Positions 3,115 through 64,000 of a DNA stretch of 64,000 bases are shown in pieces. A program made the position numbers and the translations under genes. The notes beneath the pieces were generated by a model that had not been told where the DNA came from, ran no database searches, and saw nothing but the letters and a program-made list of their open reading frames with translations. Source of the stretch: Phoronis australis (lineage: Eukaryota > Animalia > Phoronida); the NCBI GenBank assembly GCA_002633005.1, contig NMRA01000132.1, positions 740,585-804,584 on the forward strand, read 5' to 3'. Every line of letters starts with the position of its first letter. Within the stretch, counting starts at the first letter, position 1.

Positions 3115-4620
3115 AAAATGTAGGGGTTTGTGGACCTTATACTAAAAAAAAACTGTAAACGGGGTTTGTTCGAGGCCTATGCATTGTGCATTTCGGCCCC
3201 CCCGAGCCCCCCAGGGTGCGCGCATATATTAGTCAGCAATTCGCACCCCGAACTGCCAGATGGTATCTGGGAGACTTTTAGGGGGGGGGGGGGGGCATTT
3301 GTAACTGAACACGCCAAGTTGTCGATAAATGATGAGAGTCACGGAAAAATCGGACTAGAGTTCTCAGGTAAAGTTATGCGCGGATTGTTTCGTACTACTG
3401 AAACAAAACTATTCTGGTGTCAGATATATGACTTGCACCATAATGAGGAAACTCCCAATCGTTATCATTGAGAAAAGCGTCGCTTTATGGAACAGTAATT
3501 TTTGTTCATCAAGGTAGTTTCATTAGTATTCACCGACCCTCATAGCAGGGTAATGAAGGCTTAATGACCTGCATACAAAGAAATATTCACCTGTATTCGT
3601 TTCCATAAATGGAATTGCATAAGGGAGATTATGGTATTAATTACGAAATGTAATTCACTGCTTCAATTGCGCGACGTGGGTTAACTCTAAACTAATGGAT
3701 GGTAAATTGCACTCAGAGCCCGATGAAGACTTGGGAGGGGGGCTTTTGGACTTCATCAAGAGAAATGAAACTAATTGTATATACATAAAATTAAAACCCG
3801 GTTTTGATGATTTCAACCAATCCTCGTTCTGTCTCCTCCTCATTCATCATTGGCGACTGAAAACTCATACTCCCTATCTCACCAATTGGACATTATGATC
3901 TTTGGGGGGTGTTTTTCCCACAATTGCCGTGTAAATCGCTAACAGCGTATAGATTACGCTTGTCCGTTTAGCAGACTTTGAAGGGAGTTCTCAAATTTCC
4001 CTCCTAACATTTGATGGTTGTCAAGGCTTACACAGCAATTCAGAAAACTGGATGGGAAAGTCGTTTTTTAGTATCTGTTAATAGGCCAAAACCGGGTTAG
4101 GTATCCTTTTAACATGACGCACCCACCGTAACTGGCAGAGGTTGACAGTGATCCCACTCAGCCGTGGACGTGGAAACGACTGCGTCACTCAAAACTGCAT
4201 GTCGCAGTATACATACTTAAAAACTAAAATCGAATTGAACCTTTCACTCTCATAAACGCCGTGACATAATATCCAACAAAGTGATAAAGTTCCATTTCCG
4301 TTACCAACTCTAGACATCGGCAAAGCGTAGGTGCGCCATTTGTAAAGATCTACTGCAGGGGGCGCTTCAAAAATGTATTTTGCGAAAAGAGCAAACTCAA
4401 GATGCCAGAATGAAGCAGGCGATAAAAATATATTGAAGACACCGACTTACAACTAACAAAAATTTTCGCCGTTTTTAATCCGTCCTTTTCGAAAAATGCG
4501 GATTAATAAGGCTCATTTTACTTTGTTTCGTTTAACGGAATACAGCACGTCAAAAATGGTGGCTTATAAGAAAAATCTGATTTCGGACGAATAGAATTAT
4601 TTGCCGTTGATGAGACAAGA

Positions 4621-4868
4621 GGCCCGTTCCAAGAAAACTGACTTAGCTAAGACAAACCTTAAATTTCAGTCAATTTTAAGATAAAAGTAAAATTTGTCTC
4701 AAGTTCGTTTTAAGGAAAAGATCTTAAGTTTGACTTAAAATTTTTTGACTTAAGTTTTGTTTTGGTTTTGAGTATCTCTCCGGATGAGAAAGTTTCAAAA
4801 TTTGGAAGTTGAGACAAATCTTAAACTTACGTCAACAATGAACTTAAGTCAGTTTCTTGGAACGGGCC
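4621..4868. mobile_element. MITE (non-autonomous DNA transposon) with ~25-bp TIRs
   Basis: Left end GGCCCGTTCCAAGAAAACTGACTTAG; right end CTTAAGTCAGTTTCTTGGAACGGGCC. CAAGA lies on both flanks. A degenerate relative occurs at ~42634-42787. Confidence 0.8.
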
Positions 4869-5037
4869 CAAGAGCTGTAATTCACAAGACCCACACTTAT
4901 GATTAAGATACGACGTTACTGGGAAACGCCCGTGTTATTAGAACCCGTATGTAAACGTTGAGTTGTCTCTTATTTATTTCAAAGACGTTGTGTTTCATGC
5001 ATTGTACTGACTGGTGCTGAAGGCCATAGCTGCAAAA

Positions 5038-5101
5038 ATGTTGATGAAGTGCTTCTTATTCAGTTTCGTGTTGGTAGCTTGTGTTTGCTTTGCGGAGTGT
5101 G
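5038..5101 (+). CDS. Signal-peptide exon of the microexon gene
   Basis: AAAAATG start context. Basic n-region (K), hydrophobic core FLFSFVLVACVCF, small residues A-x-C at -3/-1. Ends G|GTAAGG in phase 1, which matches the phase of the microexons. Confidence 0.85.
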
Positions 5102-8100
5102 GTAAGGGGTTATTTTCTATTTCTGCCTTTAAGGTACAAGGGCCTACCACATGTTAGAGTTGGCTTACGTGGTAAATGGATTGTTTTCGTTGCATCTCGT
5201 AAAGGTGGGGGAAGGGCAACCACAGTATATGTCCGCGTAAGCCCTATGCTGCTTTGTTGTAGTTACTTTGCGAAATGAATTGTTATCGAGTATGTTGCTA
5301 TGTTCTGACGTTTGTTCGTTTGCCGTTTATATATTCGTTAGTACCCAAGCTACCCACCACGTGTATTGTCTGATGGACATAAAATTAACATAACAGGCAT
5401 CTCATTAATGTATCAAAAAGCCTGTAGTTTTTGTGGAAATCGGCCTCAAAATTGGGCTGTATGGGCCAATTTTCAATTTTTCACTTGTGGTTCTCTGAGG
5501 GATTCCTTTGAGGGACTCTGAAATTTAATAGGCCTATATGTAAAAGAGGCAGCGCGATTAAAAGGAATCGTCGGGGACTTTCACGATGTAATTCTTTCTT
5601 GGTGGTTTTTCCACTTAATTTAATTCGTTTATAAGTTATACACCCAACACAATGCTTATTTATTGAATTAAATTTGAAAAATATATTCAAAGTTACTGAT
5701 AACAATACACCTAGAAACGGACCTTTTGCAGTCAAGAGCGTTCTTTGGTAGCAAATCTGGCGTCGACTCAAATCAGCACGTCCGAAATACGCCCATGTTA
5801 TGAGACCGATCCAATATAAACCAACCAGCCAAATTAGAACTTCTACGTACTTGAATTAATATTCTGCCACCACTCCAACAATAAAACCCAAAATTTTAAT
5901 TCCCCACCCAACATAATGTCATCAAGATCACACATCCGATTTGCCATCCCCAGTCTTATTTTGATAGTTTTAAAAAACTACAACTACAGATGTTAAAGCA
6001 AAATATTGAATGACAATTACTCAAAGTACGTAATGGTAGTAGCGCTAGTTCTACAGCGAGTTCAAAGTTGAATTCATTGTAACGATTTTCAACCGATATA
6101 TTGAGTTGTTAATTATTTGCGACGACTTCAAATTCATTGTAATGTGTTCTCAACTCTTGATTGGGATCTGGAAAGCATTATAATAACGTTATAATTGAAT
6201 TCGAAAAAAATTTCAATTCTGTACTTTCTTGATATGGTGACATTTGTCTTTCAGCAACAATTGCCTCACGATTCAGTAACGGTGAGTAGCTTGCACATGT
6301 TGGCATCTCGTAGACAAAAATGATTGCTTTGATACAGCGTTGATCCCTATCTAACACCTTCATGGGTTTTAACTAAGATTCGCCTGAAGTGCGCCTCCCG
6401 TTTTGTTCGTTTTTACCGCATATTTGATCTATCGGCATTCGAAGAAATATATAGAAATTGTCAGTGTTCGCTAGTGGTTCTAGTAGAGGCAGTTGGTAGT
6501 TGAAGCAGAATATTTCATTAAAATATTTCACTTTTTTCTGACAATAGTAGCTATAGTATGAAACTTAGTAGGAGCTGCTGAGCCAATAACTCAAATTTGA
6601 GGTCCTATGAACATCTGACCCATAATAGTCGGTACAGTTACTTCAAATTTGCTAAATTGATCCGCGAACTCGTTGCAATGAGATGTGAATTCCTTACTTT
6701 GATTTGTCAATTCATAACATTCAATTTAACATTAGCATTGTAAACTGATTATTACGATTTAAAACTCTTTATGAGCTGTTCTCATTTTAGTGAGTTTGAA
6801 ATTGTTATAAAGTTATAACTTGAGTGAACGGCAGCGTTGGCTTTTGTATTATAGTAGTATATGCTTTGTTTGCTTCGAAGTATAAAAATTATGAATTTAG
6901 TTATTTCCCATAAGATGGCATTTAAATTTCTGTTTCAGCAACGTTTGCCAAACGCCTGAGTAACGGTAAGTCTTTTGTTAGGTTTATCGTAAGTTGGCAG
7001 ATGATAGATTAAGCTTTATTGAGCTCTGACAACGCTTATAAGTTTTGATAATTAATATCCCCTTTCGGATTGACAACCGCTCTCGTGAATGCGACGTCGT
7101 CTTCCTAATAAATATCTGTTTGCATAATTTTATTAAAATCCGTTCAAGAACTCGGAAGATACATCAGTAGATAACCGTGAGAAAATTCGCTCATGCCGTC
7201 CCATCCATGAAAGGAACATATCTGTAAAAATTTCATGAACATACATGAAGGGGTTTTAGAAATACACTGGAAGGCGGTGGACGCCGGACACCGGAAGGAA
7301 GGACGGACGGGAATTGACGGACAGACAGACGGACGGACGGGCGGACGGACGGACGGACGGACGGACGGACAGAGATAACGGCATAATGCGGCCACAAATT
7401 AACATATGGGCTTATAACAATGAGTTGTGAACTCTTTATACTGACTTAGAAGTCATTGGAATCAGTTCATATCAGATCTCGCAGCACTGTTGGGCAGATT
7501 CACATCCGTATTCAAAACTATAATGCTGCATTTGATGTTAAAAACCTGACGATCGCCGCATTTGATGTGAAATGTATATTGTTAATTCAGTCCTTTCATC
7601 ATGGTCCCATTTGGATTTCAGTAACAATTGCCAAAATATTCTCTAACGGTAAGTTTGTCATCAGATAGCCAAACATCGTTGCCTTGTTACAACGATGACC
7701 TCTGTCAAACGCCTCCATTCTTGTTTATTAATACCCGCCCTTGGTGTACCTGCCGTTTTCGTCGCGTTTACCGCATGCCCTATCTATGGCCCACCAACGC
7801 GGTTTCCAAGAAAAAAATTAAAAAGTGTTCGTGGTTGCTGGTGGCTCTAGCGAAAGTAATTGACAATTGAAGCAAAATATTTCATAAGGAATATTTCACT
7901 TTACTCTAATAACACTACGGAAACTTTAGTAGGATCAGCTGTGCCATGAACTCAAATTTAAAGTCATCTTAATAACTTCTGACACATAACGACAAGTTGC
8001 ATAGTCGGTATATTTGCTTCCATCTGACACTACTGCGAACTAGTTGTAATGAGTTGAATATTCATAACATGGAGTTGTCAATTCATTATATGAAGCTTAA

Positions 8101-11100
8101 GACGTGAAATGTGAGCGGATTATTATGACACAGAAACTCGATATAACAAGTTCTCATTATCGTGAGTTGGAAGTCATTATAAATAATTCTAATTTTAAGT
8201 TAAGGGCAGAGCTCACGTCACTACCTTCCTTAATATAGCGTTGATGGTCTGTCTTATTGGAAGTAAGAACTTCCCAATTCATTATTTTTCCATAACTTTT
8301 ATGTTTCAGCAACGATTGCTAAACGACTGAGTAACGGTAAGTCTTTTGCTTGGCTTATGACAGATTGCCAGCTGACAGGTTTGATACGAAGTTGACCTCT
8401 GGCAACGCTTATTCGTTCTAATTTATTTCTCCTTTCGCGTCAATGACTGCTCTCGTTTCTTTCTACTGCAGTAATTAAAACAGAATATACAATAACTATG
8501 ACTCCGACAATTGCGAGAAGATTCACAAACGGTAACTTGTTTGCAAAGTTTGGCATGTGATAGCCAAAACTTGTTGCCTTGTTTCAGCGTTGACCTTTGT
8601 CCAACGCCTCCATGTTTGTTGATTTTTATCTTATCGAAATACCTCCCCTTTAGTGTGTATGGCGTTTTCGTCGTTTTTATCGCATCTTCCACCCCTGGTT
8701 AAACAATGTGATTTCCAAGGAATAACTTAAAAGTGAAAATGTTTGCTGGTGGTCCTAGAGGAGAAATTGGTAGCACAATATTTCGTCACTTAACAACATC
8801 TAACAAATAATAACGAGTTGCGCATTCTGCTTCAATACAGTGAGATGCAAACTCGCTGTAATGAGTTGTGAATTCATAAAATTTAGTTGTCAATTAATTA
8901 AACTGAATTTAACACTTAAAATGTAAACGGATTATTATGGCTTGAAACTCGATATCAGAAGTAAGAACTCTTCAATTCATTCTTTTTCAATAAGACCGCA
9001 ATTAAATCTATATCTTAACAACTTTTGCTAAACGACTGAGTAACGATAAGCCTTTTGCATGACTTGGCAGCTGATACGTTTGATACAATGTTGACCTCTG
9101 GCAACGCTAGTTCGTTTTAATAATTAATATCTGCTTTCGGATTAACGACAACTTTCTTTTGTTTTTACCACAGTAAGTAAAGCAAAATATTCAATAACAA
9201 TAAGTCCGACTAAGGGTTCATTAGTTGCAAAATTTACTGCACGTTGAAGTTTGAAGTTTTTGGAACGATTTAAAACTGATAAATTGAGCTTCAAAGCATA
9301 ACCATGAGTTGAAAAATGTTTACGAAGACTTCATATTCATTGTACTGACTTCTCAACTCTTATACTAAGTTGGAAGCCTTTATAATAACTTAAAAACTGG
9401 TATCATATTTGGAGCACATCCACTTCCGTACTGGGACTACAATGCTGCAATTGATGAGAAGTGAAATTTTTCAATTCAGTTCTTTCCTGATACGGTTGCA
9501 TTTGTGTTTCAGCAACTATTGCCAGAAGATTCACCAACGGTAAGTTGTTTGCACAATTTGTGGCATGTGATAGCCAAAAAGTGTTGCCTTGTTTCAGCGT
9601 TGACCTTTGTGCAACGCCTCCATGTTTGTTGATTAATGCCGCCCTTTAGTGTGTATGGCGTTTTTGTTGTTTTTATAGCATCGTCCACCCCTGCTTAAAC
9701 AATGTGATTTTCAAGGAATAACTTAAAAGTGACAATGTTTGCTGGCGGTCCTAAGGGAGGAATTGGTAGCACAATATTTCGTCACTTAACAGCATCTGAC
9801 AATAAATAACGAGTTGTGTTCTCGGCTTCTAAACAGTGAGAATCGAACTCGTTGTAATGAGTTGTGAATTCATAACATTTAGTTGTCAATTCATTACACT
9901 GAATTTAACACGTGAAATGTGAACCGATTATTATGACTTGAAACTCGATATGAGGAGTTCTAATTGTGCTGAGATGGTAATACTTGTAGACAATTACAAT
10001 TTTGAGTTAATGGCAGAGTTGACGCCATTACACGTCCTCATTATAGCATTGATACTCCGTTTTCTTCGAAGTAAAAACTTCTCAATTCATTCCTTTCCAA
10101 TAAGATGGTATCTAAATTTTTGTTTCATCAACTTTTGCGAAACGATTGAGTAATGGTAAGTCTTTTGCTTGGCTTATAATAAGTTAGCAGCTGATAGAAC
10201 ATAAATAGCTTTGCTGCGATGTTGACTTCTGTCAATGCTAATAATTAATATCTCCTTTCATGTTAACGACCGCTGTAGTTTGCTTTTACGGCTCTAATTA
10301 AAGCAGAATATTCAATAACAATAACTCCCACGAAGGAATCGTAGTATTGAAAACTTTATTGAAAGTTCAGATTTGAAGGTTTCGGAATGATTTAAAACGC
10401 ATTGATTGAGTTTGAAAGCCTCATAATGAGTTGCCAATTATATTGGATGACTTTAAATCCACTGTACTAAGTTTTCAACTCTTTAAACTGAGTTGGAAGT
10501 AGTTATGTTAAGTTAGTATTTGAATTAACAGTTTTTTGGAGCACGAACACTTCAGTATTCGAACGATAATGCTTCATTTGATATGAAATAAAATTTGCCA
10601 ATTCAGTCATTTCCTGATATGGTTGCATTTGTGTTTCAGCAACAATTGCCAAAAGATTCACTAACGGTAAATTGTTTGGACACTTTGGCCTCCGATAGCC
10701 AAAAACTGTTGCGTTAATTGTTACAATGTTCACACCTGTCTAGCGCCTCCATGCTTGTCAATTATGACCCGCCTGTAGTGTGTCTCCCGTTTTCGTCGTT
10801 TTCTACCACATGCTCTATCTATGGTCAACCAACGTGATTTCCAATGAATAACTGAAAAGTGCCAGTGGTGGTTCTAGAGGAAGTAATTGGTAGTTGAAGC
10901 AGAATATTTCATAAAAAATCTCACTTAACTCTAATAACAGTAGTTATAATACGGCAAATTTAGTAGGACTAGCTGTGCCAAAAACTCAATATTTGAAGCC
11001 ATTTTAACGACTTCTGACACATATTGAAGAGTTGTCGGCATATTTGTTTCAAACTGGTACTACAGCGAGCAGCGAACACGATGTAATAAGTTGTGAATTC

Positions 11101-14100
11101 AAAACATTGGAGTTTTAATTAATTGCTTTGAATTTAACACGTGAAATGTGAACGGATTATTATGACCTGGAACTCGATATAAGAAGTAAGAACTCCTCAA
11201 TTCATTCTTTTTCAATAAGACCGCATTTAAATCTATATCTTAGCAACTTTTGCTAAACGACTGAGTAACGATAAGCCTTTTGCATGACTTGGCAGCTGAT
11301 ACGTTTCATACGATGTTGACCTCTGGCAACGCTAGTTCGTTTTGATAATTAATATCTCCTTTCGGATTAACGACAACTTTCTTTTGTTTTTACTACAGTA
11401 AGTAAAGCAAAATATTCAATAACAATAAGTCCGACTAAGGGTTCATTAGTTGCAAAATTTACTGCAAGTTGAAGTTTGAAGTTTTTGGAACGATTTAAAA
11501 CTGATAAATTGAGATTCAAAGCATAACCATGAGTTGAAAAATGTTTACGAAGACTTCAGATTCATTGTACTGACTTCTCAACTCTTATACTAAGTTGGGA
11601 GCCTTTATAATAACTTTAAAACTAGAATCATATTTGGAGCAGATTCACTTCCTTATTAAAATTACAATGCTGCATTTGATGTGAAGTGAAATTTTTCAAT
11701 TCACTTCTTTCCTGATATGGTTGCATTTGTGTTTCAGCAACTATTGCCAGAAGATTCACCAACGGTAAGTTGTTTGCACAATTTGGCATGTGATAGCCAA
11801 AAAGTGTTGCCTTGTTTCAGCGTTGACCTTTGTGCAATGCCTCCGTGTTTGTTGATTAAGGCCCCCCTTTAGTGTGTCTGGCGTTTTTGTTGTTTTTATC
11901 GCATCCTCCACCCCTGCTTAAACAATGTGATTTTCAAGGAATAACTTAAAAATGACAATGTTTGCTGGCGGTCCTAGAGGAGGAATTGGTAGCACAATAT
12001 TTCGTCACTCAAAGGCATCTGACAATAAATAACGAGTTGCGTTCTCGGCTTCTAAACAGTGAGATGCGAACTCGTTGTAATGAGTTGTGAATTCATAACA
12101 TTTAGTTGTCAATTCATTACACTGAATTTAACACGTGAAAAGTGAACCGATTATTATGACTTGAAAATCGATATGAGGAGTTCTAATTGTGCTGAGATGG
12201 TAATACTTGTAGAGAATTACAATTTTAAGTTAATGACAGAGTTGACGCCATTCCACGTCCTCATTATAGCATTGATTCTCCGTTTTCTTCGAAGTAAAAA
12301 CTTCTCAATTCATTCCTTTCCAATAAGATGGTAACTAAATTTTTGTTTCAGCAACTTTTGCGAAACGATTGAGTAATTGTAAGACTTTTGCTTGGCTTAT
12401 TATATGTTAGCAGCTGATAGAAAATAAATAGCTTTGATGCGATGTTGACTTCTGGCAATGCTAACAATTAATATCTCCTTTCGGGTTAACGATCGCTGTA
12501 GTTTGCTTTTACGGCTATAATTAAAGCAGAATATTCAATAACAATAACTCCGACGAAGGAATCGTAGTATTGAAAACTTTATTGAAAGTTCAGATTTGAA
12601 GGTTTCGGAACGATTTAAAACGCATTGATTGAGTTTGAAAGCGTCATAATGAGTTGCCAATTATATTGGATGACTTTAAATCCACTGTACTAAGTTTTCA
12701 ACTCTTAAAACTGAGTTGGAAGTAATTATGTTAAGTTAGTAATTGAATTAACAATTTCTTGGAGCACGCGCACTTCAGTATTCGAACGACAATGCTTCAT
12801 TTGATGTGAAATAAAATTTGCCAATTCAGTCATTTCATGATATGGTTGCATTTGTGTTTCAGCAACAATTGCCAAAATATTCACTAACGGTAAGTTGTTT
12901 GGACACTTTGGCCTCCGATAGCCAAAAACGGTTGCGTTAATTGTTATAATGTTCACCCCTGTCTAGCGAGTCCACGTTTGTTAATTAAGACCCGCCTGTA
13001 GTGTGTCTCCCGTTTTCGTCGTTTTTACCACATGCTCTATCTATGGTCAACCAACGTGATTTCCAATGAAAAACTGAAAAGTGCCAGTGGTGGTTCTAGA
13101 GGAAGTAGTTGGTAGTTGAAGCAGAATATTTTATAAAAATATCGCACTTTACTGTAATAACAGTAGTTATAGTACGGCAAATATGGCAGGACTAGCTGTG
13201 CCAAAAACACAAATTTTGAAGTCATTTTAACGACTTCTGGCACACAATGAAGAGTTGTCGGCATATTTGTTTCAAACTGGCACTACAGCGAGCTGCAAAC
13301 ACGATGTAATGAATTGCGAATTCAAAACATTGGAGTTTTAATTAATTGCTTTGAGTATAACACGTGAAATGTCAACGGATTGTTATGACCTGGAACTCGA
13401 TATCAGAAGTAAGAACTCCTCAATTCATGCTTTTTCAATAATATCGCAATTAAACTTATATTTCAGCAACGTTTGCTAAACGACTGAGTAACAGTAAGCC
13501 TTTTGCATGACTTGACAGCTGATAAGTTTGATACGATGTTGACCTCTGGCAACGCTTATTCCTTTTAAGAATTAATATCTCCTTTCGGATTATGGACCAC
13601 TTTCTGTTTTTTTTTACTGCAGTAATTAAAGCAAAATATTTAATAACAATAAGTCCGACTAGGGAATCAATGAATTCAAAAAATTACTGCACGTTGAATT
13701 TTGAAGTTTTTGGAACGATTTGAAACTTATTCATTGAGCTTCAAAGCATAATCATGAGTTGCCAAATGTTTACAAAGACTTCATATTCATTGTACTGACT
13801 TCTCAACTCTTACACTAAGTTGGAAGCCTTTATAATAACTTTAAAACTAGAATCATATTTGGAGCCCATGCACTTCCGTATTGGAACTACAATGCAGCAT
13901 TTGATGTGAAGTGAATTTTTTCAATTCAGTTCTTTCCTGATATGGCTGCATTTGTGTTTCAGCAACTATTGCCAGAAGATTCACCAACGGTAAGTTCTTT
14001 GCACAATTTGGCATGTGATAGCCAGATAGTGTTGCCGGATTTCAGCGTTGACCTTTATGCAACGCCTCCGTGTATGTTGAGTAATGCCGCCCTTTATTGT

Positions 14101-17100
14101 GTCTGGCGTTTTTGTTGTTTTTATCGCATCCTCCACCCCTGCTTAAACAATGTGATTTTCAAGGAATAACATAAAAGTGACAATGTTTGCTGGCGGTCCT
14201 AGAGGAGGAATTGGTAGCACAATATTTCGTCGCTTAGTCACTTACGGCATCTGACAATAAATAACGAGTTGCGTTCTCGGCTTCTAAACAGTGAGAATCG
14301 AACTCGTTGTAATGAGTTGTGAATTCATTACATTTAGTTGTCAATCCATTACACTGAATTTAACACGTGAAATGTGAACCGATTATTATGACTTGAAAAT
14401 CGATACGAGGAGATCTAATTGTGCTGAGATGGTAATACTTGCAGAGAATTACAATTTTGAGTTAATGGCAGAGTTGACGCCTTTACACGTCCTCATCATA
14501 GCATTGATTCTCCGTTTTCTTCGAAGTAAAAACTTCTCAATTCATTCCTTTCCAATAAGATGGTATCTAAATTTTTGTTTCAGCAACTTTTGCGAAACGA
14601 TTGAGTAATGGTAAGTCTTTTGCTTGGCTTATAATAAGTTAGCAGCTGATAGAAAATAAATAGCTTTGCTGCGATGTTGACTTCTGGCAATGTTAACAAT
14701 TAATATCTCCTTTCGGGTTAACGACCGCTGTAGTTTGCTTTTACGGCTATAATTAAAGCAGAATATTCAATAACAATAACTCCGACGAAGGAATCGTAGT
14801 ATTGAAAACTTTATTGAAAGTTCAGATTTGAAGGTTTCGGAACGATTTAAAACGCATTGATTGAGTTTGAAAGCGTCATAATGAGTTGCCAATTATATTG
14901 GATGACTTTAAATCCACTGTACTAAGTTTTCAACTCTTAAAACTGAGTTGGAAGTAATTATGTTAAGTTAGTAATTGAATTAACAATTTCTTGGAGCACG
15001 CGCACTTCAGTATTCGAACGACAATGCTTCATTTGATGTGAAATAAAATTTGCCAATTCAGTCATTTCATGATATGGTTGCATTTGTGTTTCAGCAACAA
15101 TTGCCAAAATATTCACTAACGGTAAGTTGTTTGGACACTTTGGCCTCCGATAGCCAAAAACTGTTGCGTTAATTGTTACAATGTTCACCCCTGTCTAGCG
15201 CGTCCACGTTTGTTAATTAAGACCCGCCTGTAGTGTGTCTCCCGTTTTCGTCGTTTTTACCACATGCTCTATCTATGGTCAACCAACGTGATTTCCAATG
15301 AAAAACTGAAAAGTGCCAGTGGTGGTTCTAGAGGAAGTAGTTGGTAGTTGAAGCAGAGTATTTCATAAAAATATCGCACTTTACTCTAATAACAGTAGTT
15401 ATAGTACGGCAAATATGGTAGGACTAGCTGTGCCAAAAACTCAAATTTTGAAGTCATTTTAACGACTTCTGACACACAATGAAGAGTTGTCGGCATATTT
15501 GTTTCAAACTGGCACTACAGCGAGCTGCAAACACGATGTAATGAATTGCGAATTCAAAACATTGGAGTTTTAATTAATTGCTTTGAGTATAACACGTGAA
15601 ATGTCAACGGATTGTTATGACCTGGAACTCGATATCAGAAGTAAGAACTCCTCAATTCATTCTTTTTCAATAATATCGCAATTAAACTTATATTTCAGCA
15701 ACGTTTGCTAAACGACTGAGTAACAGTAAGCCTTTTGCATGACTTGGCAGCTGATAAGTTTGATACGATGTTGACCTCTGGCAACGCTTATTCCTTTTAA
15801 GAATTAATATCTCCTTTCGGATTATGGACCACTTTCTGTTTTTTTTACTGCAGTAATTAAAGCAAAATATTTAATAACAATAAGTCCGACTAGGGAATCA
15901 ATGAATTCAAAAAATTACTGCACGTTGAATTTTGAAGTTTTTGGAACGATTTCAAACTTATTCATTGAGTTTCAAAGCATAATCATGAGTTGCCAATTGT
16001 TTACAAAGACTTCATGTTCATTGTCCTGACTTCTCAACTATTACACTAAGTTGGAAGCCTTTATAATAACTTTAAAACTAGAATCATATTTGGAACCCAT
16101 GCACTTCCGTATTGGAACTACAATGCTGCATTTGATGGGAAGTGAATTTTTTCAATTCAGTTCTTTCCTGATATGGCTGTATTTGTGTTTCAGCAACTAT
16201 TGCCAGAAGATTCACCAACGGTAAGTTCTTTGCACAATTTGGCATGTGATAGCCAGATAGTGTTGCCTTGTTTCAGCGTTGACCTTTATGCAACGCCTCC
16301 GTGTATGTTGAGTAATGCCGCCCTTTAGTGTGTCTGGCGTTTTTGTTGTTTTGATCGCATCCTCCACCCCTGCTTAAACAATGTGATTTTCAAGGAATAA
16401 CATAAAAGTGACAATGTTTGCTGGCGGTCCTAGAGGAGGAATTGGTAGCACAATATTTCGTCGCTTAGTCACTTAACGGCATCTGACAATAAATAACGAG
16501 TTGCGTTCTCGGCTTCTAAACAGTGAGAATCGAACTCGTTGTAATGAGTTGTGAATTCATTACATTTAGTTGTCAATCCATTACACTGAATTTAACAAGT
16601 GAAATGTGAACCGATTATTATGACTTGAAAATCGATACGAGGAGTTCTAATTGTGCTGAGATGGTAATACTTGTAGAGAATAACAATTTTGAGTTAATGG
16701 CAGAGTTGACGCCATTAAACGTCCTCATTATAGCAATGATTCTCCGTTTTCTTCGAAGTAAAAACTTCTCAATTCATTCCTTTCCAATAAGATGGTATCT
16801 AAATTTTTGTTTCAGCAACTTTTGCGAAACGACTGGGTAATGGTAAGTCTTTTGCATGGCTTATAATAAGTTAGCAGCTGATCGAAAATAAATAGCTTTG
16901 CTGCGATGTTGACTTCTGGCAATGTTAACAATTAATATCTCCTTTCGGGTTAACCACCGCTGTAGGTTGCTTTTACTGCTATAATTAAAGCAGAATATTC
17001 AATAACAATAACTCCGACGAAGAAATCGTAGAATTGAAAAGTTTACTGAAAGTTCAGATTTGAAGGTTTCGGTACGATTTATAACGCATAGATTGAGTTT

Positions 17101-20100
17101 CAAAGCGTCCTAATGAGTTGTCAATTATATTCTATGAATTTAAATCCACTGTATTAAGTTTTCAACTCTTTACACTGAATTGGAAGTAATCATGTTAAGT
17201 TTATAATTGAAATCGCAGTATATTTGGAGCACGTTTACTTCCGCATTGGAACTATCGTTCTGCATTTGATATGAAATAAAATTTGCCAATTCAGTCTTTT
17301 CCTGATATGATTGCATTTGTATTTCAGGAACAATTGCCAAAAGATTCAGTAACGGTAATTTGTTTGGACACTTTGGCATCCAATAACCAAAAACTGTCGT
17401 GTCGTTACAATGTTTACCTCTAGCGAATGGCTCCATGCTTGTTAATTAAGACCCGCCTGTAGTATGTCTCCCGTTTTCGTCGTTTTTACCACATGCTCCA
17501 TCTATGGTCAACCAACGTGACTTCCAATGAATAACTAAAAAGGGCCAGTGGTTGTTCTAGCGGAAGTATTTGGTGTTTGAAGCAGAATATTTTATAAAAA
17601 ATATCTCACTTACTTTAATAACAGTAGTTATAGTACGGAAACTTTAGTAGGACCAGCTGTGCCAAAAACTCAAACTTTGAAGTCATTTCAACGATTTCTG
17701 ACACATAATGAAGAGTTGCATAGTCGTTGTATTTGTTTCAAACTGGCACTACAGCGAGCTGCGAACTCGATGTAATGAGTTGGGAATTCAAAACATTGGA
17801 GTTTTCAATTAATTGTTTTGAATTTAACACGTGAAATGTGAACGGTTTATTATGACTTGTAACTCGATACTAGGAGTTCTAATTATACTGAGATGGGAAT
17901 CCTTGTAGAGAATTATGAATTTGAGTTAACCGCAGAGTTGAGGCCACTACGCGTCCTCATTATAGCGTTGATTCTCCATTTTCTTCGAAATAAGAACTTT
18001 TCAACTCATTCCTTTCCCATAAGATCGTAAATAAATTTCTGTTTCAGCAACGTTGGCCAAACGACTAAGTAACGGTAAGTCTTTTGCTTTGTTTGCAATA
18101 AGTTAGCAGCTGATAGAATGTAGATAGCTGTGATACGATGTTGACTTCTGGCAATGCTAATAATTAATATCTCCTTTCGGGTTAACGACCACTCTCGTTT
18201 GGTTTTACGGCAGCAATTTAAAGCAGAATATTCAATAACAATTTCTGCGACGAAGAAATCGTAGAATGGAAAACTTTACAGCAACTTCAAGTTTAAAGTT
18301 TTTGGAACGATCTGAAACTTATAGATTGAATTTCGAAGCAGTATAATGACTTTAAAATTATATGCAATGACTTCAAACCCATTGTACGAAGTTCTCAACA
18401 CTTTACACTGAGCTGGAAATAATTATGTTCAGTTAATAATTGAATTCCCAGTTTATTTGGAGCACGCGCACTTCAGTATTCGAACGATAATATTTCATTT
18501 GATGTGAAAAAAATCTGCCAATTCATTCTTTTCCTGATATGGTTGCATTTGTGTTTCAGCAACAATTGCCAAAAGATTCAGTAACGGTAAGTTGCTTGGA
18601 CTGTTTGTCCTCCGATAGCCAAAAATTGTTGCGTTAATTGTTACAATGTTCACCTCTTTCTAGCGCCTCCATGCTTGTTCATTAAACCCGCCTGTAGTGT
18701 GTCTCCCGTTTTCGTCGTTTTTACCACATGCTCTATATATAGTAAACCAACGTAATTTCCAATGAATAACTAAAACTGCCAGTGGTGGTTCTAGAGGAAG
18801 TAATTGGTAGTTGAAGCAGAATATTTCATAAAAATATCTCACTTTACTCTAATAACAGGAACTTTAGTAGGACCAGCTGTGCCAAGTACTCAAACTTTGA
18901 AGTCATTTCAACGATTTCTGACACACAGTGAAGAGTTGCAGTCGGTGTATTTGTTTCAAACTGGCACTATAATGAGCCGCAAACGTGATGTAATGAGTTG
19001 TGAATTCAAAACATTGGAGTCTTTAATTCATTAAAATGAATTTAACATGTGAAATGTGAACGGACTTGAAACTCGATATCAGGAGTTCTCACTATCGTCA
19101 ATTGGAAGTCACCATAAATTATTCTAATTTTGAGTTAAGGGCAGAGTTGACACCACTGCCTTCCTTAGTTGATGGTCTGTTTTCTTCGAAGTAAGAACTT
19201 CTCAATTCATTCGTTTTCCATAAGATCGCACTTTTGAAATTTATGTTTCAGCAACGTTTGCTAAACGACTGAGCAACGGTAAGCCTTTTGCTTGACTTAT
19301 GTTAGATTGGCAGCCAATAGGTTTGATACGATGCTGACCTGTGGCAACGCTCATTCGATTTGATAATTGATATCTACTTTCTGTTTAATTACCGCTTTCG
19401 TTTGTTTTTACTGCAGCAATTAAAGCAGATTATTCAGTAAGTAACTCTACTGCAAGTTCAAACTTGAAGTTTTCTGAATAATTTGAAACTTATATATTGA
19501 GCTTCAAAGCAATGTAATGAGTTGCCAATTGTTAACGAAGAGTTCATACCCATTGTACTGTGTTCTCAACTCTTTATGCTAAGTTGGAAGACCTTATAAA
19601 AAGTTTAAAGTTGAATTCGCGGCATATTTGAAGCTTGCACACTTCCGTATTCGAACCATAACAGTGCATTTGATGTAAAATAAAGTTTGTCAAGTCTTTC
19701 CTGATATGGTTGCTTTTATGTTTCAGCAACAATTGCCAAAAGATTCATTAACGGTAAGTTGTGTGCACACTTTCGCATCTGATAGCCAAAATCTTTGCCT
19801 TGCTGGAACGTTGAGCTCTATCTAACACCTCCATGTTTGTTCATTGATTCCTACCTCACGCGTGTCTGGGATTTTCATCGTTTTTAGCGCATGCTCTATG
19901 GTCAACCAGCGTGATTTCCAAGGTCATAACTAAAACTTTTCACTTTCCTCTGGTGATTCTTGTGGAAATATGTAGTTGAAGCAGAATATTTCGTCATTTA
20001 ACAGCTACTGATAGATAATAACAAGCCGCATAATCGGTATATTTTTTTCAAAATCGCTACAGTGAGCTGCAAACTCGTTGTAATCAGCTTTGAATTCATC

Positions 20101-23100
20101 ACATTGAGTTGTCAATTAATTACATTGAATTGAACACGAGATTACTGTAAACGAATTGTTATGACGTGAAAACTCGATCTGAGGAAGCGTGTTTTAAATC
20201 ATGTGCAGATTTGTAATTTTGAGTTAACGGCAAAGTTGACGCCACTACGCATCCGTAATATGGCGTTGATGCTTTGTTTTCTTCAAAGTAAAAACTTCTC
20301 AATTCATTCCATTTCCATAAGTTCGCAATTAAATTTGATTAACGGTAAGTCTTTTGCTTGGCTTATGACAGATTGGCAGCTGATAGGTTTGATACGATGT
20401 TGACCTCTGGCAACGCTTATTCGTTTTGATAATTGATATCTTCTTTCGGGTTAATGACCCCTCTAGACTGTCTTTGCCGCGGTAATTAAAGGAGAATATT
20501 CAAAAACACTAATTACAACTGTGGAATCGTAGAATTGCAAACTCTACTCCTAGTTCAAATTTGAATTTTTTTTGGAACAAATTGATGCTCGAAAATTGAG
20601 TTTCAAAGTATTATAATGAGTTGCCAATTGTTAACAAAGACTTCATATTCATTGTTCTAAGGTCTCACTCTCAGCTCTTTATACCGAGTTGGAAATCACT
20701 GTAATAAGATGAAAATTAAATTCGCAGCACATTTGAATCACTTGCACTTCCGTATACGAACCACAATCCAGTTCTTTCCTGATATGGTTGCATTTGTGTT
20801 TCAGGAACAATTGCCAAAAGATTCACTAACGGTAAGTTATTTGCACAATTTGGCACCTGATAGCCAAAAATGGTTGCCTCTTACAGCGTTGACCTCTGTC
20901 TAACGCCTCCATGTTTGTTAATCCACATCCGGCTGTAGCGTGTCTGCCGTTTCTGTTGTTTTTTTACAGCATGCTCTACCTGTGGCCAACCAAAGTGATT
21001 GCAAAAAAAATAATCAAAAAGTTCAGTGTTCGAATGTGGTTCTAGCCGAAGTAGTTGAACCAGAATAGTTAAGAACTTTATATTTCAGCACCAATTGCCA
21101 AAAGATTCACTAAGGGTAATTTTCTAACACACTGTGAAATCTGATAGCCAAAAATTGTTGTTTTTTCAAGACGTTAAACTCTGTATAACGCCTTCAAGCT
21201 TGTAGGAGTGTTAAGACCACGCTTTCATTCTGTGACACTTTATTGAATCTAAGTCGCTTGTGCCCTGACATACAGAAAGCAATTACAACTCTTTCTGCAA
21301 CATATGTCAATGGTCATCCTGTCGCTTGCACTCAAGCAATGATTCTTCGAATGGGCAATGTGTCAAAGTCGTGGACCAAGTAGGTCAACCGACTTGGTCG
21401 GGTGACTAATTGGTCTACGACATCAACATACAGAAATGAACAGTACATCACATGGATACTCAGGCTGGATGGGCCATAGAAGTTACTCAACAGAAAACAA
21501 AGCAAGTTGACATATCTGAAATCTTTTGTTGTGCTAACGTAAAAGTAAATCCAAAATGAACAGTTATTCAATATAAAGAGACAACTTAGTCAACTAAGAG
21601 ATAACAAGACCAATTTGAAAACCATGTCATTCCTGGCATCAACACAGGGTCCGAGTGATTTTTTGAGCGATGACAGGCAGACCAATAGACCAAAACAAAC
21701 CCAAACAAATGGACAATTATGACGCAATTACAAGATATTGTAGTACTGCACAATTTTGATGAAAATGCAGAAGAATCTGGCCTATATAGATGACTTTGTG
21801 TCCGAATAACCGAGGAACTTATTTTTACGCTTGAATAATCTGATTAATTTGTTCACGTTTCATATAGAGTGGAGTATTCTTTTTCTTCAACAACAAGATT
21901 TTTAAATGTCGCCTGTAAATTATTATTTTTTTGCTCTCATTCATAAGGTGATGAAGTGTTTAGTGTTGGAATTTTGACATTTCCTTTGAAATTCTATTTA
22001 GTCCGTTCAGTTAATGTTATTAGTGAAATGAACATTTTCCCATAGCCAAATTGTTTTCATTGATAGAAAGCTCTTTAGAAACTTCAGAGTTCAGCTTTTT
22101 TCAGAGTAATGTTGCTTTGCAGATTTTACGTGTGTTCTCTGCAACAATCTAAAATAAAAGAGTAGGAAACAACCACATGACCACCTGGGATTGCCACTTT
22201 TAAGGCCAGGGGATACCTTGATTTGCTGTTATAAGAATCAAACAAAAGTACGATTTTATAGTTGATCAAGACTTAGTGAGAGAGGATATAATTCTTTGGG
22301 AGTTTGCCACCATTTCTTGTCATTATAGCGTGGACCTCATTTTGCGTTACTGATCCTCTTCTCTGTGTGATAAAATCTCCTTGAGAAAGAATTAAGTTTC
22401 ACGTACCGGTAGGCAAAGTGTTGTTTACAGCTATATTTGCTTTTTGTTGTCTTCAATCCATTAACCACAGAAAATAAATCAAATACATTGGGTGATTTAG
22501 AACAGACACTAACAAAACACAAATGAATTACCAAGTAGTGATTGCACACTCAGTTGTTAAGTAAACTTAATTGAAGAGCATTTATTTATAGGTACCTTGG
22601 GTACATGCTTAGCTACTTTCTCTTCTCTTAATGGCGGAGCTTTAATGTGTTGGAGGGGTATTTTGGTGCTGTCTTGGGACTTAAGTTCCCTTATCTAGTT
22701 CTCTTGATTTTATCTCTGCTGTCACATGGGGTTCTAAGAACTGAAGCAATACACAATTACGGCCATATAAATGACTCAACTGTGTATCTGACTGTAAATG
22801 TTGTTGACCAAGCATATGTGGAACGTTTGACTGAACATGTATAGCCAAAACATAGTCTGAGATCGAACACAATGATGATGGTTTCAACAAAACGCCCTTA
22901 ATTGTCAAATGGATTAAGAGGTTGCACTCTGCCATGACAAAAGAATAGTTTAATAAAATTGTGACATCAGCGTATTTCTAAACCGCAAGGTCACCTTGGT
23001 TAGCTTCAGTCTCCTTTTGGGATGCATATAAAGTGAACAGTAAGCTTGTCCAGAGTGTTTCTTTTAATATTTGTACGAAAATGGAGAATAAGTTCACTTT

Positions 23101-26100
23101 GGTTAAATTCAATGTAGTGACCAGTTTTAGTTTACACATTCAAATGAAAAACTACAAATAATGAATAAACGAGATTGCTTATTTAGGTTAATAATGTCTA
23201 AGGTTCTCTTGACAACAGTTGCCAACTTTATTAAAGTCTGCCATTATCTTGTGTCTTGTTCTACTCACAGGTGTTCATTTAAATGGATGACACCAGTGAC
23301 GTCTGCATAACCAAATTACACAAGTACATATAATTGCGCAACTGAAATAGTTCTCAATACATGATATAGCTGTAGAGTTATTATATCCACTATTACGAAA
23401 ATATCATGACGTTCTCGAAAGTGCATGAATGAAACTGAAAGCTTGTATTAAATCACCAAAGTCTGTAAAGAAAATCACAACAAGTTTTGTATTCATATAC
23501 CACCTTCACATCAACGTATTATTTTGTAAAATAATAAATATTGGATGTAGAAAAAATCGGTGTCATCTCATACACTGTTTTTTGTGTTGTTTTTGTATAG
23601 TTTAACGAAAAGTCTTCAATTATTTTATGAAAATTCATTTATAGCGTGCACAGAATACTAGGCTGGGTGTTAAGTTCCAATGGTTACTATTACTAATAGT
23701 AGTGATAATGAGGGTGTCGGTAAGTTGACACTTTCTAAGTTATAAACATATTAGCTGTCCGAGATCTGTACTGCTGAAGTTAGAGACCAAGCGAGTTTTC
23801 TCATGACTAAAAAGCGTCCGCGTATGCAAGTGGTTCTAATCGATATAACACGAAGTTGAAGCAGAATATTTCATCAAAGTAACTCACTTTACTCTAGTAG
23901 TTATAGCACGGAAATACAGTGGGACCAGCCTTGCCAGGAACGCAAATTTGAAGTCATTACAAAAACTTCCGACGCATTGTAATTCCTGTGAACTAATTCC
24001 AGTGAGTTACAAACTAATTGTAATGAGACGTCAATTCAGTACATGGAATTTGAAACTCACAATGCATTGTGAACTGTTTATAATGACTTGAAATTCATTC
24101 AGTGTATTTAGTAGTAAATCATTACAAGTGCGATTTGATTTGCAGTTTAAGTGAACGTCAGAGTTGGCTCCGCTACGTTCCCGTATTTGAGCCCTGGTGC
24201 TCTGTTTGCTTCGAAGTATAATGGTTCTCAATTAGGTCCTTTTGCTAAAAGATCTCAATTAAATTTCTGTTTCAGCAACCTTTGCTAAACGACTGAGTAA
24301 CGGTAAGTCTTTTTGTTTGGCAGCTGACAGAAAAAAAAAAACTAGTTTTAAAACGACGTTGGTATCTTCCAGAGCTTATATCTTTTGATAATTAATATTC
24401 CACTTCTGATTAACGAGCCCTTTGTTTATTTGTACCGCATTAATTAAAGCAGAATATTCATTCAGCAATAATTCAAGAGTACGATCAAAGTAGCACCAAG
24501 TCTGCTGCGGGTCGATTTTCAACTCGTCGAGTTTCAAAGCATTATAGTGAGTTTCCAATTATTTACAATGTATGTAAATTCAATCTAATGAGTTGTCAAT
24601 TCTTTATACTGATTTAGAAGTCATTATAATAATTTTATATTTGAGCTCGCACCAAAGTTGGAGCAGGTAAATCTCGTATTAGATCTATAAAATGCGCTTG
24701 ATGTGATTGCTTTCCTGATATGGTCGCATTTGTGTTTCAGCAACAATTGCGAAAAGATTCCCTAACCGTAAGTTGTTTGCACGTCTGATAGCCAAAATGG
24801 TTTGCTTTGCTACAACGTTGACCTCTGTCTAACCCCCGTTGTTTGTTTATAATACCCGTCTTTAGTGTGTCTGCCGTTTTCGTCGTTTTTACCACAAGCT
24901 CTATCTATGGTCAACCAACACGGTTTCCAAGGAGTAATTAATCGTTACATTGAGTTTAAAAATTCACAATGCATGCTGAAACTCATTATGTTGAGTTAGA
25001 AGTTGTTATGAAGAGTTCCAATTTGAGTGAACGGCAGAGTTAGCTCCGCTACGCCTCCGTATTAGAACACTTATGCTCTATTTGCTTCGAAGCATAACAA
25101 TTATCAACTGAGTTCTTTCTCATAAGAACGCTTTTAAATTTCTGTTTCAGCAACGATTTCCCTACGACTGGCTAACGGTAGGTCTTGGTTTATGGTTAAT
25201 TGGCGGCTGATGGAAAAAGGTAGCTGTGATACGATATTGTCCAACAGCAACGCTGATACGTTTTGATAATTCATTATAATGAGTCGTCAAATTTTTATAC
25301 TGAGTTAGAAGTCATTATAGGTATTTAATATTTAAACTCGCAGCAATGTTAGAGCACGTAACTTCCATGATAGAACCTTAATACTGCATTTGATCTGAAA
25401 TGAAATTAGTCAATTCTTTACTTTCCTGATGTGGTCACACTTGTGTTCCAGCAACAATTGCCAAACGATTCAGTAATGGTAAGTTTTTACACACTTTGGC
25501 ATCTGATAACCAAAAACATGGCAGTATATTGAGTTGGAAATCATCACAAAGAGTTCCAATCTGAGTGAACGGCAGATTTGGCTCCGCTGCGTTTCCATAT
25601 TTGAGCTCTGATGCTCTGTTTGCTTCGAAGTATAATGGTTCTCAAGTAGGTCCTTTGCTATAAGATCTCAATTAAATTTCTGTTTCAGCAACCTTTACTA
25701 AACGACTGAGTAATGGTAAGTGTTTTTGCTTGGCTTACGATAAATTGGCAGATGACAGAAAAAAGCTATCTTTGATATGACGTTGACCTCTTCCAAAGCT
25801 TTTGATATTAATATTCAAACTCAGATTAACGAGCCCTTTTGTTTGTTTGTAATGTGTTTCACGTGTAATGTGCTTCACGTGTAATGTGCTTCACGTGTAA
25901 TGTGCTTCACGTGTAATGCGCTTCACGTGTAATGTGCTTCACGTTACCGCATCTTTTATCTATCAGCAACCAATGTGGTTTCCACTGAATTATTAAAAAA
26001 TGGTCAGTTTTGGTAGTGGTTCTGGCCGAAGGATTTCGTAGTTGAAGCTTTCAGTAAATAATTAATCAAAATAACTCACTTTACTGTAACAAGAGTAGTT

Positions 26101-27559
26101 ATAGTGCGGAAACTTTAGTAGGACCCGCTGTGCTATGAACTCAAATTTGAAATCATGTTAACAATTTCTGACACATTATAACGAGTTGCATAGTCGGTCT
26201 AATTTTTTCAAACTCCCTACAATGATCTGCGAACTCGTAATAAGTTTTCAATTGACATCATTGAGCAGATTAATATGACTTGAAACTTATTACGATGTGT
26301 TGTCATATTGTACTTAGTTGGAATGTATTATAAAGACTACCAGAGCAGAGCTGGTAGCACTACATTTTAATCCTTTCCCTTGAGATCGCATTTAAATTTC
26401 TGTTTCAGCAACAGTTACCAAACGGTAAATCTTTTGCTTGGTTATGATAAGTTGGCAGCTGATAGAAAAAAGAGATCTTTGATACTGTTGTCCTCTGGCA
26501 AGCGCTTACAGTATAAGTTTTGATAATGAATATCCACTTTCCGGTTAACGACCGCTCTCGTTTGTTTTACAATAATTTTAAGTAGAATATTCAATTACAA
26601 GAAATCAAAATACGGAATCCTAGTAGCACCAACCCCACTGCGAATCCAAATTTGAAATAATTTTAACGATTTCCAACTCATAGATTGAGTTTCAAAGCAT
26701 TATAATGCGTTTCCAATTATCTATAATGACTTGAAACTCCTGAAGTCATTATATTAACGAGTTCGCAGTAGAGTTGGAGCATGTTACATATTTGAAATGT
26801 AGAGCGCTAATGGTGTGTTTGCAGTAAATTAAAGTTCTCAATTCATTTATTTCCTCATGTAATCGGAACCAGTTTTACTTTTTCAGCGACTGTTGCCTTG
26901 ACGACTGAGTAACGGTAAGTCTTTTACATGCTTCACATTGGAAGTTAATTGACACGAAGTGTTGATCCGCATCTAAAGCATCCAAGTCGTGGTAAAGTTG
27001 CATTTTGCTTTGTTTAGCTTTCTAATTTCAAAGTCGGTGTCGAACAATGGTGTACCAGGTTTAACCGTTCCTCAGTTTTCTTCGCCTTTTCACTAATTTT
27101 TGGCAACCTTCCTAATATTCCACCTCTACCAAGAACAATTTTCGTACCTCCTACAATTTTCATTTTCGCTCATCGTCTGAAATATTACCCAGGAGTACGT
27201 GCCACCCATTGCCCCCAAAGGCACCTCTCGATGCTTTGCTACAGCAGGCAAAACCTTTCAAAAATATCATCCTTAGGCACATTTTTAACAAGCCGACCAG
27301 TCTTCAACAGCGGCGGGTAATTTTTCTCAGGTTAAATTTTTTTTGCACGTAAAAGTTAGACCCCACGGGGTCAAAATTAAATGATATACGGGGTTGAATA
27401 CGTTCAACTTAGATTAAAAATCACTTGTGGTGTTTAGTAAATAAATATCTATCTGTTTCAGATCTACCATACAGAACACACAAGCAGAAGCCCGACGATA
27501 TGGCATTTACAAATACAAGTAGTTCAGAAAAAGAAGGAATTAAAGCATTTCAGTTGTAA
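5038..27559 (+). CDS. Novel secreted repeat polyprotein encoded by a 27-nt microexon array (candidate glycopeptide/prohormone precursor), ~300 aa
   Basis: Exon 1 is 5038-5101 (MLMKCFLFSFVLVACVCFAEC, phase-1 donor GTAAGG). Intact 27-nt exons start at 6255, 6939, 7622, 8310, 9513, 10640, 11738, 12352, 12863, 13467, 13963, 14584, 15095, 15699, 16194, 16816, 17328, 18048, 18560, 19252, 19727, 20805, 21089, 24276, 24741, 25151, 25452 and 25689. Translation: ATIASRFSN ATFAKRLSN VTIAKIFSN ATIAKRLSN ATIARRFTN ATIAKRFTN ATIARRFTN ATFAKRLSN STIAKIFTN ATFAKRLSN TTIARRFTN ATFAKRLSN ATIAKIFTN ATFAKRLSN TTIARRFTN ATFAKRLGN GTIAKRFSN ATLAKRLSN ATIAKRFSN ATFAKRLSN ATIAKRFIN GTIAKRFTN APIAKRFTK ATFAKRLSN ATIAKRFPN PTISLRLAN ATIAKRFSN ATFTKRLSN. 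Putative last exon from 27462; the 3' end is uncertain. Confidence 0.85.
7095..7420. repeat. Insertion containing a (GGAC)n microsatellite within an intron of the array
   Basis: GGAC/GACA run at ~7300-7370, embedded in sequence absent from the other monomers. Boundaries approximate. Confidence 0.65.
21201..23820 (-). mobile_element. ~2.6 kb foreign insertion interrupting the array; decayed coding remnant with a BRCT-like segment
   Basis: Array homology stops near 21203 and resumes near 23830. The minus-strand frame at ~22440-22126 reads NLILSQGDF..TQNEVHAIMTRNGGK..SH*VLI..LKVAIPGGHVVVSYSFILDCC, with stops. Element class not identified. Confidence 0.5.
25849..25944. repeat. 16-bp minisatellite GTAATGTGCTTCACGT x6
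   Basis: Six directly visible tandem copies. Confidence 0.95.
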
Positions 27560-63550: not shown

Positions 63551-63834
63551 GTTAGTAATCAGCTTTACTGTTAGACAATGTTAAATCACCCACATCTCTT
63601 CCATCCGTCATCTATTCGCACATCTGTCATTACCTTTGCTTGTCTGGTAATTTTATCATAAATCAGTTGATTTTTGAAATAGCTGTGCCATATTGAAATT
63701 CACTATCCCGCCAGATGGCAATTAAGTCTTTTTTGGACAGGCATTCAGCACCACCTACAGATCCCATGTAATAGTAATGATAGGTTTCAACCTGTGGGTG
63801 CAAAAATCGTTTGAATGCCTTTCCTGCTATCATA

Positions 63835-63993: not shown

Positions 63994-64000
63994 TCCTGCC

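Follow-up and report, generated by a model that had tools for sequence, protein, structure and literature searches.

A phoronid array of 27-nucleotide exons encodes a predicted multicopy N-glycopeptide precursor

Introduction

What kind of protein is made by a gene whose N-glycosylation sequons come into being only when its exons are joined? The question is raised by a 64,000-nucleotide (nt) stretch of animal genomic DNA from Phoronis australis (contig NMRA01000132.1, positions 740,585 to 804,584, GC 35-47%; referred to below as the window and numbered from its first letter), in which 28 exons of 27 nt, each flanked by AG and GT, lie on the plus strand from 6255 to 25715. The original prediction, which ended the array at 25693, within the last 27-nt exon, described a repeated sequon and proposed either glycopeptide signals or a glycosylated mucus, egg-coat, or adhesive protein. 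The sequon holds up, but that description left unmentioned a Lys-Arg or Arg-Arg pair in most units, a signal-peptide exon, and a stop exon. Taken together, the sequence features favor the glycopeptide-signal arm of that proposal, and we predict, with about even confidence, a multicopy N-glycopeptide precursor that is cut by a convertase.

Results and Discussion

Expression and Splicing of the Gene

The gene is real, expressed, and spliced. Four RNA runs under one species label (X1-X4) were aligned to positions 4300-24299 and 24200-28280, and the joints listed are 15 of the 81 in the first interval and 15 of the 19 in the second. The RNA animals differ from the window's animal, as other letters are seen, and near-identical exon copies are indistinguishable, so a joint that jumps an exon may represent either exon skipping or an allele. 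RNA 5′ ends fall at 5015 and 5017. The first exon (5015-5101, plus strand), defined by these ends, by joints, and by hydropathy, consists of a short 5′ untranslated region (UTR) and a coding part (5038-5101) that begins with ATG at 5038, continues through 21 predicted signal-peptide codons, and closes with a phase-1 donor. Hydropathy is 2.0-2.9 across all 11-residue windows of this exon, and cleavage is presumably after Ala-Glu-Cys by the -3,-1 rule. The joint from 5101 to 6255 is present in X1 and is carried by 49 reads in X2, 65 in X3, and 0 in X4. It enters microexon 1 (6255-6281, plus strand), which follows the signal peptide directly, has a single Arg (SR), and is supported by RNA joints on both flanks. 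The main joint out of it, 6281 to 8310 (X1, 48 reads in X2, 66 in X3), jumps two plus-strand microexons with intact splice sites, 6939-6965 and 7622-7648.

The core array (8310-20831, plus strand), delimited from intron clades, self-comparison, and RNA, holds 19 intact exons of 27 nt that alternate between two types, type A units ending F-[ST]-N and type B units L-S-N. Here the RNA follows a three-exon cycle that bypasses 13467 and 15699; read depth at the joints of this cycle is 2-3 times that of the first junction. One X1 contig runs from a type A exon through a 20805-type exon to 24276, 25151, 25689, 26887, and 27462, a path that leaves out both sequon-breaking exons (21089 and 24741); the direct joining of the 20805-type to the 24276-type exon, past 21089, is also carried by 59 reads in X2 and 48 in X3. 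From 25177, alternative joints lead to 25452, 25689, and 26887 (8, 17, and 11 reads in X2).

Translation ends in a 28-nt plus-strand exon (26887-26914), a repeat copy with one additional base that completes the last sequon and supplies TAA at 26910-26912. The X1 contig confirms it with no other letters, no gap, and no indel; this RNA-confirmed stop rules out coding use of the following exon (27462-27582, plus strand), a 3′ UTR exon defined by an RNA joint and by a contig end at 27582, with ATTAAA at 27539. The TAA sits 2 nt before the last exon junction, and a stop this close to the last junction should escape nonsense-mediated decay. The joint from 26914 to 27462 is found in X1 at depth 387 and has 104 reads in X2, 90 in X3, and 0 in X4, and the 104 and 90 junction reads give an expression estimate of ∼50-100 reads per kb per million. 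No listed joint has more than 5 reads in X4; expression, found in X1-X3, is sample-restricted and strongly different between runs. Sense-strand intronic reads over 5000-27600, mostly at depth 1-12 in X2 and X3 and near 0 in X4 outside repeats, suggest abundant unspliced precursor RNA in X2 and X3.

The phase-1 frame contains 0 stops over the 28 exons, and the two alternative frames are closed by 11 and 29. Symmetrical 27-nt phase-1 microexons supply 756 of the 843 coding nt (90%). With all 28 exons the product has 281 residues and 25 sequons; without the 7 exons jumped by RNA joints it has 218 residues and 21 sequons, the latter being a composite model and not one read-through transcript.

Sequons at the Exon Junctions

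Each exon encodes a unit of the form x-T-[IF]-A-K-R-[FL]-[ST]-N, with the intron splitting the x codon. The 27 junction tripeptides in genomic order comprise NAT (18), NTT (2), NGT (2), and one each of NVT, NST, NAP, KAT, and NPT, a recount that agrees exactly with the 24 usable sequons and three exceptions (NAP, KAT, NPT) first reported. Thr is kept in 27 of 28 exons (ACA 11, ACG 7, ACT 7, ACC 2; one CCA), as is Asn (AAC 22, AAT 5; one AAG), and both exceptions are the same exon, 21089-21115 on the plus strand, which has Pro for Thr and Lys for Asn, hence neither half-sequon, and is absent from the RNA seen. As a chance control, both half-sequon ends occur in 27 of the 98 AG-27nt-GT windows of the gene region, in 0 of 155 on the plus strand outside it, and in 3 of 199 on the whole minus strand. 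That Asn-x-Thr exists only after splicing is demonstrated directly by the RNA: all 13 microexon-to-microexon joints among those listed in 4300-24299 give N-A-T or N-G-T.

It had also been proposed that x varies while Asn and Thr stay fixed. Expressed joints do contain A, G, V, and P at x, and the claim stands for the A, G, and V seen in RNA. The S and T variants, by contrast, trace to an altered donor position -1 in exons 12352, 13467, and 15699; the listed RNA joints jump 13467 and 15699, and the 12352-type exon ends in G, not T, so this variation is in part splice-donor decay in exons that the RNA skips. The suggestion that skipping an exon regenerates the sequon is numerically sound, as N-x-S/T results from 348 of 378 possible forward exon joins, but skipping of whole units keeps the sequon density wherever the sequon sits. 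There is no sign that the junction position itself is selected: a phase-1 nine-codon unit must split one of its codons; a split at x is one of nine choices, and a split anywhere inside the sequon is three of nine. The placement is probably the register of the duplicated unit and not a device. With G at donor position -1, only A, D, E, G, or V can stand at x, so selection on splicing also excludes Pro for as long as the donor stays at consensus; that the splice donor would at the same time protect the sequon from Pro is a coupling open to test.

Selection on the Unit Residues

Changes in the exons were mapped onto a tree that draws on introns alone, with 221 columns averaging 3.76 parsimony steps. 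Over the four non-degenerate Asn/Thr columns 1 step is counted where 15.0 are expected (P 1.5e-5), and the wobble base of each of these two codons takes 4 steps. The wobble bases thus change as fast as the introns while the non-degenerate columns are nearly fixed, which places Asn and Thr under selection at the protein level. The three fourfold columns take 10 steps versus 11.3 expected. Splice-adjacent intron columns show 24 steps over 13 columns at the acceptor and 17 over 6 at the donor, so the purifying selection on Asn and Thr that had been suspected is upheld beyond the conservation of nearby splice-adjacent bases. The Asn wobble base is also donor position -2, where 27 of 28 exons have C or T and none has A, the base that the donor consensus prefers there.

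Neutral simulation on the intron tree (four settings, 1500 runs each), to be read with the caveat that the exons were chosen by intact splice sites, gave 5.9-9.0 expected amino-acid changes per position, versus 1 observed for Thr, 1 for Asn, 1 for Phe/Leu, 2 for Ala, 2 for Arg, and 3 for Lys. The simulation P values are 0.000-0.020 for the first five and 0.001-0.069 for Lys. Constraint on Ile/Phe is borderline (P 0.04-0.26), with an invariant second codon base, and the Ser/Thr before Asn is unconstrained (7 changes versus 6.5-8.8 expected). Exons without a basic pair number 5 against a simulated 17.8-22.8 (P≤0.005); the absence of stops alone is not significant (P 0.04-0.17). The sequon is thus a selected feature, as claimed, but not the only one, since Phe/Leu, Ala, Arg, and Lys are constrained as well.

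The Basic Pair and the Predicted Peptides

A KR or RR pair is found in 23 of the 28 exons, with Arg always second and RK never seen; the remaining 5 units are of the KI, SR, and LR types. The residue before the pair is Ala in 26 units, Ser in 1, and Thr in 1 (n = 28). Because the pair lies mid-exon, each released peptide would consist of the tail of one exon and the head of the next, and exon skipping or a change in copy number would for that reason alter the peptide mix. In silico cutting of the chain from all 28 exons yields 24 products, of which 18 are 7-mers and 19 have exactly one sequon; without the 7 RNA-jumped exons it yields 18 products, 13 of them 7-mers and 15 with one sequon. The predicted main product is a mostly neutral 7-mer, [FL]-[ST]-N-x-T-[IF]-A, accompanied by predicted 16-mers with two sequons where Arg became Ile. 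The uncut chain would have a net charge of +37 to +51. A continuous amphipathic helix in this chain was considered and rejected, as the moment at 100 degrees averages 0.07-0.10 in stretches of 18-36 residues. At position -2 of the 25 sequons stand 13 Phe and 12 Leu, and an aromatic residue at this position raises N-glycosylation efficiency, according to the part of the source available (PMC6683751).

In the mechanism that we propose, the signal peptide of exon 1 would take the chain into the endoplasmic reticulum, where a glycan would be transferred to each splice-made N-x-T, helped in about half of the sites by the Phe at -2. An enzyme of the prohormone-convertase type would then cut after Lys-Arg and Arg-Arg, and a carboxypeptidase would trim the ends. 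The output should be 18-24 pieces, mostly neutral 7-mers with one glycan together with 16-mers with two. Most likely they would act as a ligand or cue that is secreted and multiplied through copy number, akin to a hormone, pheromone, or gamete cue, and this is the weakest step. The gene shares with peptide precursors a signal peptide spliced in frame to repeats and dibasic-bounded units with Arg at P1, and the jumping of exon 21089 in X1, X2, and X3 counts in favor of the convertase-cut glycopeptide precursor, as this exon is without both half-sequons. A stronger version, in which N-glycosylation is obligatory for all of the released peptides and splicing writes the peptide set so that exon choice sets the ligand ratio, strikes us as rather unlikely; if true, it would constitute a new class of animal signaling precursor. 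Among the glycosylated neuropeptides known from invertebrates, most are minor forms with O-linked glycans. With one selected N-glycan site in each of ∼20 7-mers between convertase sites, the precursor would allow a clean test of whether the glycan is part of the peptide signal.

Several observations weigh against the precursor that we favor. An amidation Gly before the basic pair is found in 0 of 28 units, and acidic residues or spacers are absent from the 28 genomic units; both features are common in peptide precursors. No RNA cycle is more abundant than the one that includes the KI unit (139 and 147 reads in X2), so the basic site is dispensable in about one-third of the units there, and the constraint on Lys is not significant in the most cautious simulation setting (P 0.069). 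The third positions of Lys, Arg, and Ile/Phe, not all of them fourfold sites, are unusually constant (2 steps versus 11.3), so part of the constraint may act on the RNA sequence, for instance as a splicing enhancer, and the tree could be skewed by gene conversion among the units. Departures from the sequon are expressed near the C-terminus: the N-P-T junction from 24767 to 25151, whose C is placed by the position of the joint, has 73 reads in X2 and 58 in X3, and an X2/X3 allele reads N-V-T and then D-A-T (35 and 22 reads). A glycan three residues past the cut might hinder the convertase. Finally, N-linked forms are rare among glyco-neuropeptides: in the available portion of a lobster study, 1 of 24 is N-linked (bioRxiv 10.1101/2025.06.26.661634).

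Alternative Explanations

The alternative that survives best, which we regard as possible but doubtful, is that the chain stays uncut as a cationic bottle-brush glycopolymer of ∼200-260 residues with one N-glycan per nine, working in mucus, egg jelly, cement, or matrix, with Lys-Arg binding acidic polysaccharide or mineral and the hydrophobic residues self-associating. Such a polymer would readily tolerate the 5 of 28 units with KI, SR, or LR, including the abundantly expressed KI, and would account for a sequon kept more strictly than the basic pair (absent from 1 exon versus 5). Nine residues equal three turns of the polyproline-II type, which would put all glycans on one face; this argument is purely geometric, and the mean hydrophobic moment is 0.44 at 120 degrees. 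Free change in copy number fits a polymer as well. What speaks for cutting is that the basic residues are always adjacent and in the order K/R-R rather than scattered, this order being the convertase preference. The main product, moreover, has neither Cys nor a cross-linking domain, and its moderate expression is low for bulk structural secretion, although whole-animal samples would dilute it.

Distinctly less probable is a scheme in which the peptides are cut as proposed but their sequons are mostly unoccupied, Asn and Thr being receptor contacts of an ordinary peptide family. The constraint on Phe/Leu and Ala, about as strong as that on Asn and Thr, would suit receptor contacts, as would the expression in X2 and X3 of Pro at x and of the Asn-to-Asp change, and neuropeptide glycoforms are usually minor species in the part of the preprint available (bioRxiv 10.1101/2025.06.26.661634). 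Against this, an unfolded secretory chain in which N-x-T has an aromatic or aliphatic residue at -2 is a favorable substrate for glycosylation, x, unlike N and T, varies in RNA (A, G, V), and an unconstrained residue before Asn would be odd in a short receptor epitope. Least probable, a variation generator like the schistosome micro-exon genes (MEGs), in which regulated exon skipping would produce a diverse secreted mixture for an interface with a host, with microbes, or in allorecognition, and glycosylation and cutting would be of secondary importance, would agree with a coding sequence that is 90% symmetrical microexons, with the several alternative joints per run, and with alleles that differ among runs, but the units are homogenized and under purifying, not diversifying, selection, and the alternative joints are inseparable, unless DNA of the same animals is compared, from alleles or from misassignment among near-identical copies.

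Other Features of the Array and Its Surroundings

The introns are copies of each other, and unit types A and B form two intron clades. A 2.23-kb super-unit of four exons is repeated four times over ∼8790-17877 with periods of 2223-2232 and 89-94% identity between copies, and its first exon is dead or donor-weakened in all four (9019, 11244, 13467, 15699). The dead exon copies within 8505-11270, all on the plus strand, are 8505 (no AG), 9019 (no AG, AT donor), 10129 (CAT acceptor), and 11244 (AT donor); one more copy, near 20330, is deleted. Downstream on the same strand, the 3′ microexons (24276-25715) start at 24276, at 24741 (final C, which gives N-P-T), at 25151 (LR), at 25452, and at 25689. 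They are followed by a shortened 16-nt plus-strand copy (26409-26424) whose use would shift the frame to another short C-terminus with two adjacent Cys; the loose-end consensus ahead of 26886 hints at such use, with an agreement of 0.73 in X2 and 0.71 in X3. The locus thus displays the birth and death of a microexon array in one place: duplication of intron plus exon, decay of the super-unit, and a copy one base longer serving as the stop exon.

At ∼21200-23600, within the 3.2-kb intron that follows exon 21089, lies an insertion not made of repeat units; divergent reads cover it on both strands, and it is probably a multicopy element. Flanking the array gene on the plus strand are a broken LINE-type (long interspersed nuclear element) reverse transcriptase at 1018-2810 (RVT_1, weak) and a long terminal repeat (LTR) retrotransposon integrase fragment at 30782-32482 (Integrase_H2C2, rve). 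From 33402 to ∼51400 (plus strand) runs a multiexon gene resembling SLC22 or organic cation transporters; its exon at 39564-39797 matches MFS_1 and Sugar_tr, and its closest named relatives among the 21 matches listed are Bulinus proteins (58-59%). On the minus strand, 46188-46544 holds the start of a Cys-rich open reading frame (ORF) with no Pfam match at E 0.01, which we take to resemble a THAP zinc finger. A palindromic or inverted repeat at 56311-57400, with near-identical ORFs on both strands, is probably a nonautonomous DNA element. The start of a YMR196W-like/MGH1-like glycoside hydrolase gene occupies 58693-64000 (plus strand); PF03200 and PF22422 are found in its relatives, and crinoid, bivalve, and starfish proteins are among the 120 listed. 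The proximity of a glycan-processing gene to the predicted glycopeptide gene may be a coincidence.

Homologue and Literature Searches

The first exon alone has no Pfam match, positions 4000-29000 have no Rfam match, and self-BLAST reveals no second copy of the array within the 64-kb window. Of the metagenome searches with DNA patterns, one gave three matches that we attribute to chance, each being a single match inside a long bacterial-type ORF (presumably biotin carboxylase), and the other gave 0. Literature searches with five within-exon repeat motifs found no match, nor did combinations of precursor, dibasic, and N-glycosylation, of convertase, mollusc, and pheromone, or of sequon and junction, in a literature that excluded most subscription journals and the supplements holding neuropeptide catalogues. 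Seven-residue glycopeptides of this kind are without a match in the searches made; the spliced protein was not compared with protein databases, and a public gene model may exist.

Comparison with Known Systems

The alpha-s caseins CSN1S1 and CSN1S2 have duplicated 21-27-nt exons, skipping at weak sites, and modification sites on small exons, as described in the accessible parts of two papers (PMC12470106, PMC6437144). With the Phoronis gene they share small-exon duplication and, as predicted for Phoronis, secretion and modification sites on small exons, and also frequent skipping if the jumped exons of Phoronis are not a matter of alleles; the caseins are phosphorylated and not cut into unit peptides, whereas N-glycosylation is predicted for the Phoronis protein. 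Casein phospho-motifs straddle exon ends, a point not found in those parts of the two casein papers.

Schistosome MEGs combine a signal-peptide exon with symmetrical microexons and skipping variants, according to the available portions of PMC4015677 and PMC4671649. The layout is common to the Phoronis gene, in which a signal-peptide exon precedes symmetrical microexons that make up most of the coding sequence; gland-restricted expression is plausible here too, and alternative joints are seen, possibly as alleles. Unlike MEG exons, those of Phoronis are recent, near-identical tandem duplicates together with their introns, under purifying selection and with a fixed sequon and dibasic motif, and the neighboring genes give no indication of a flatworm.

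The cortical alveoli of fish eggs contain hyosophorins, polysialoglycoproteins that are tandem short glycopeptide repeats with 80-90% carbohydrate in the accessible text of PMC3528131, and the flounder form has one N-glycan per unit, as the title of a reference cited there states. Tandem short units with one N-glycan each, at a predicted site in Phoronis, are common to both. Hyosophorin repeats are identical, whereas the Phoronis units are basic and hydrophobic, contain a dibasic pair, and form two alternating near-identical types with variants. Hyosophorin units are acidic, are cut otherwise, and are released as unit glycopeptides at fertilization. They belong to fish, whereas the named animal matches of the genes neighboring the Phoronis array are all invertebrate among the matches listed and suggest a bilaterian, perhaps a lophotrochozoan.

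Amidated neuropeptides have a Gly before the basic site, which the Phoronis units do without. In the available part of the honeybee report, apidaecin is made from a signal peptide and repeats with dibasic processing, one exon per repeat (PMC3415428). Signal peptide, tandem units, dibasic sites, and exon-encoded repeats of variable number are all common to apidaecin and the Phoronis gene. Apidaecin and hymenoptaecin have an acidic spacer of the EAEP type and a whole peptide per exon; the Phoronis gene has no spacer and places its basic pair mid-exon, and unlike apidaecin its predicted peptides are neutral 7-mers with N-x-T, each straddling two exons.

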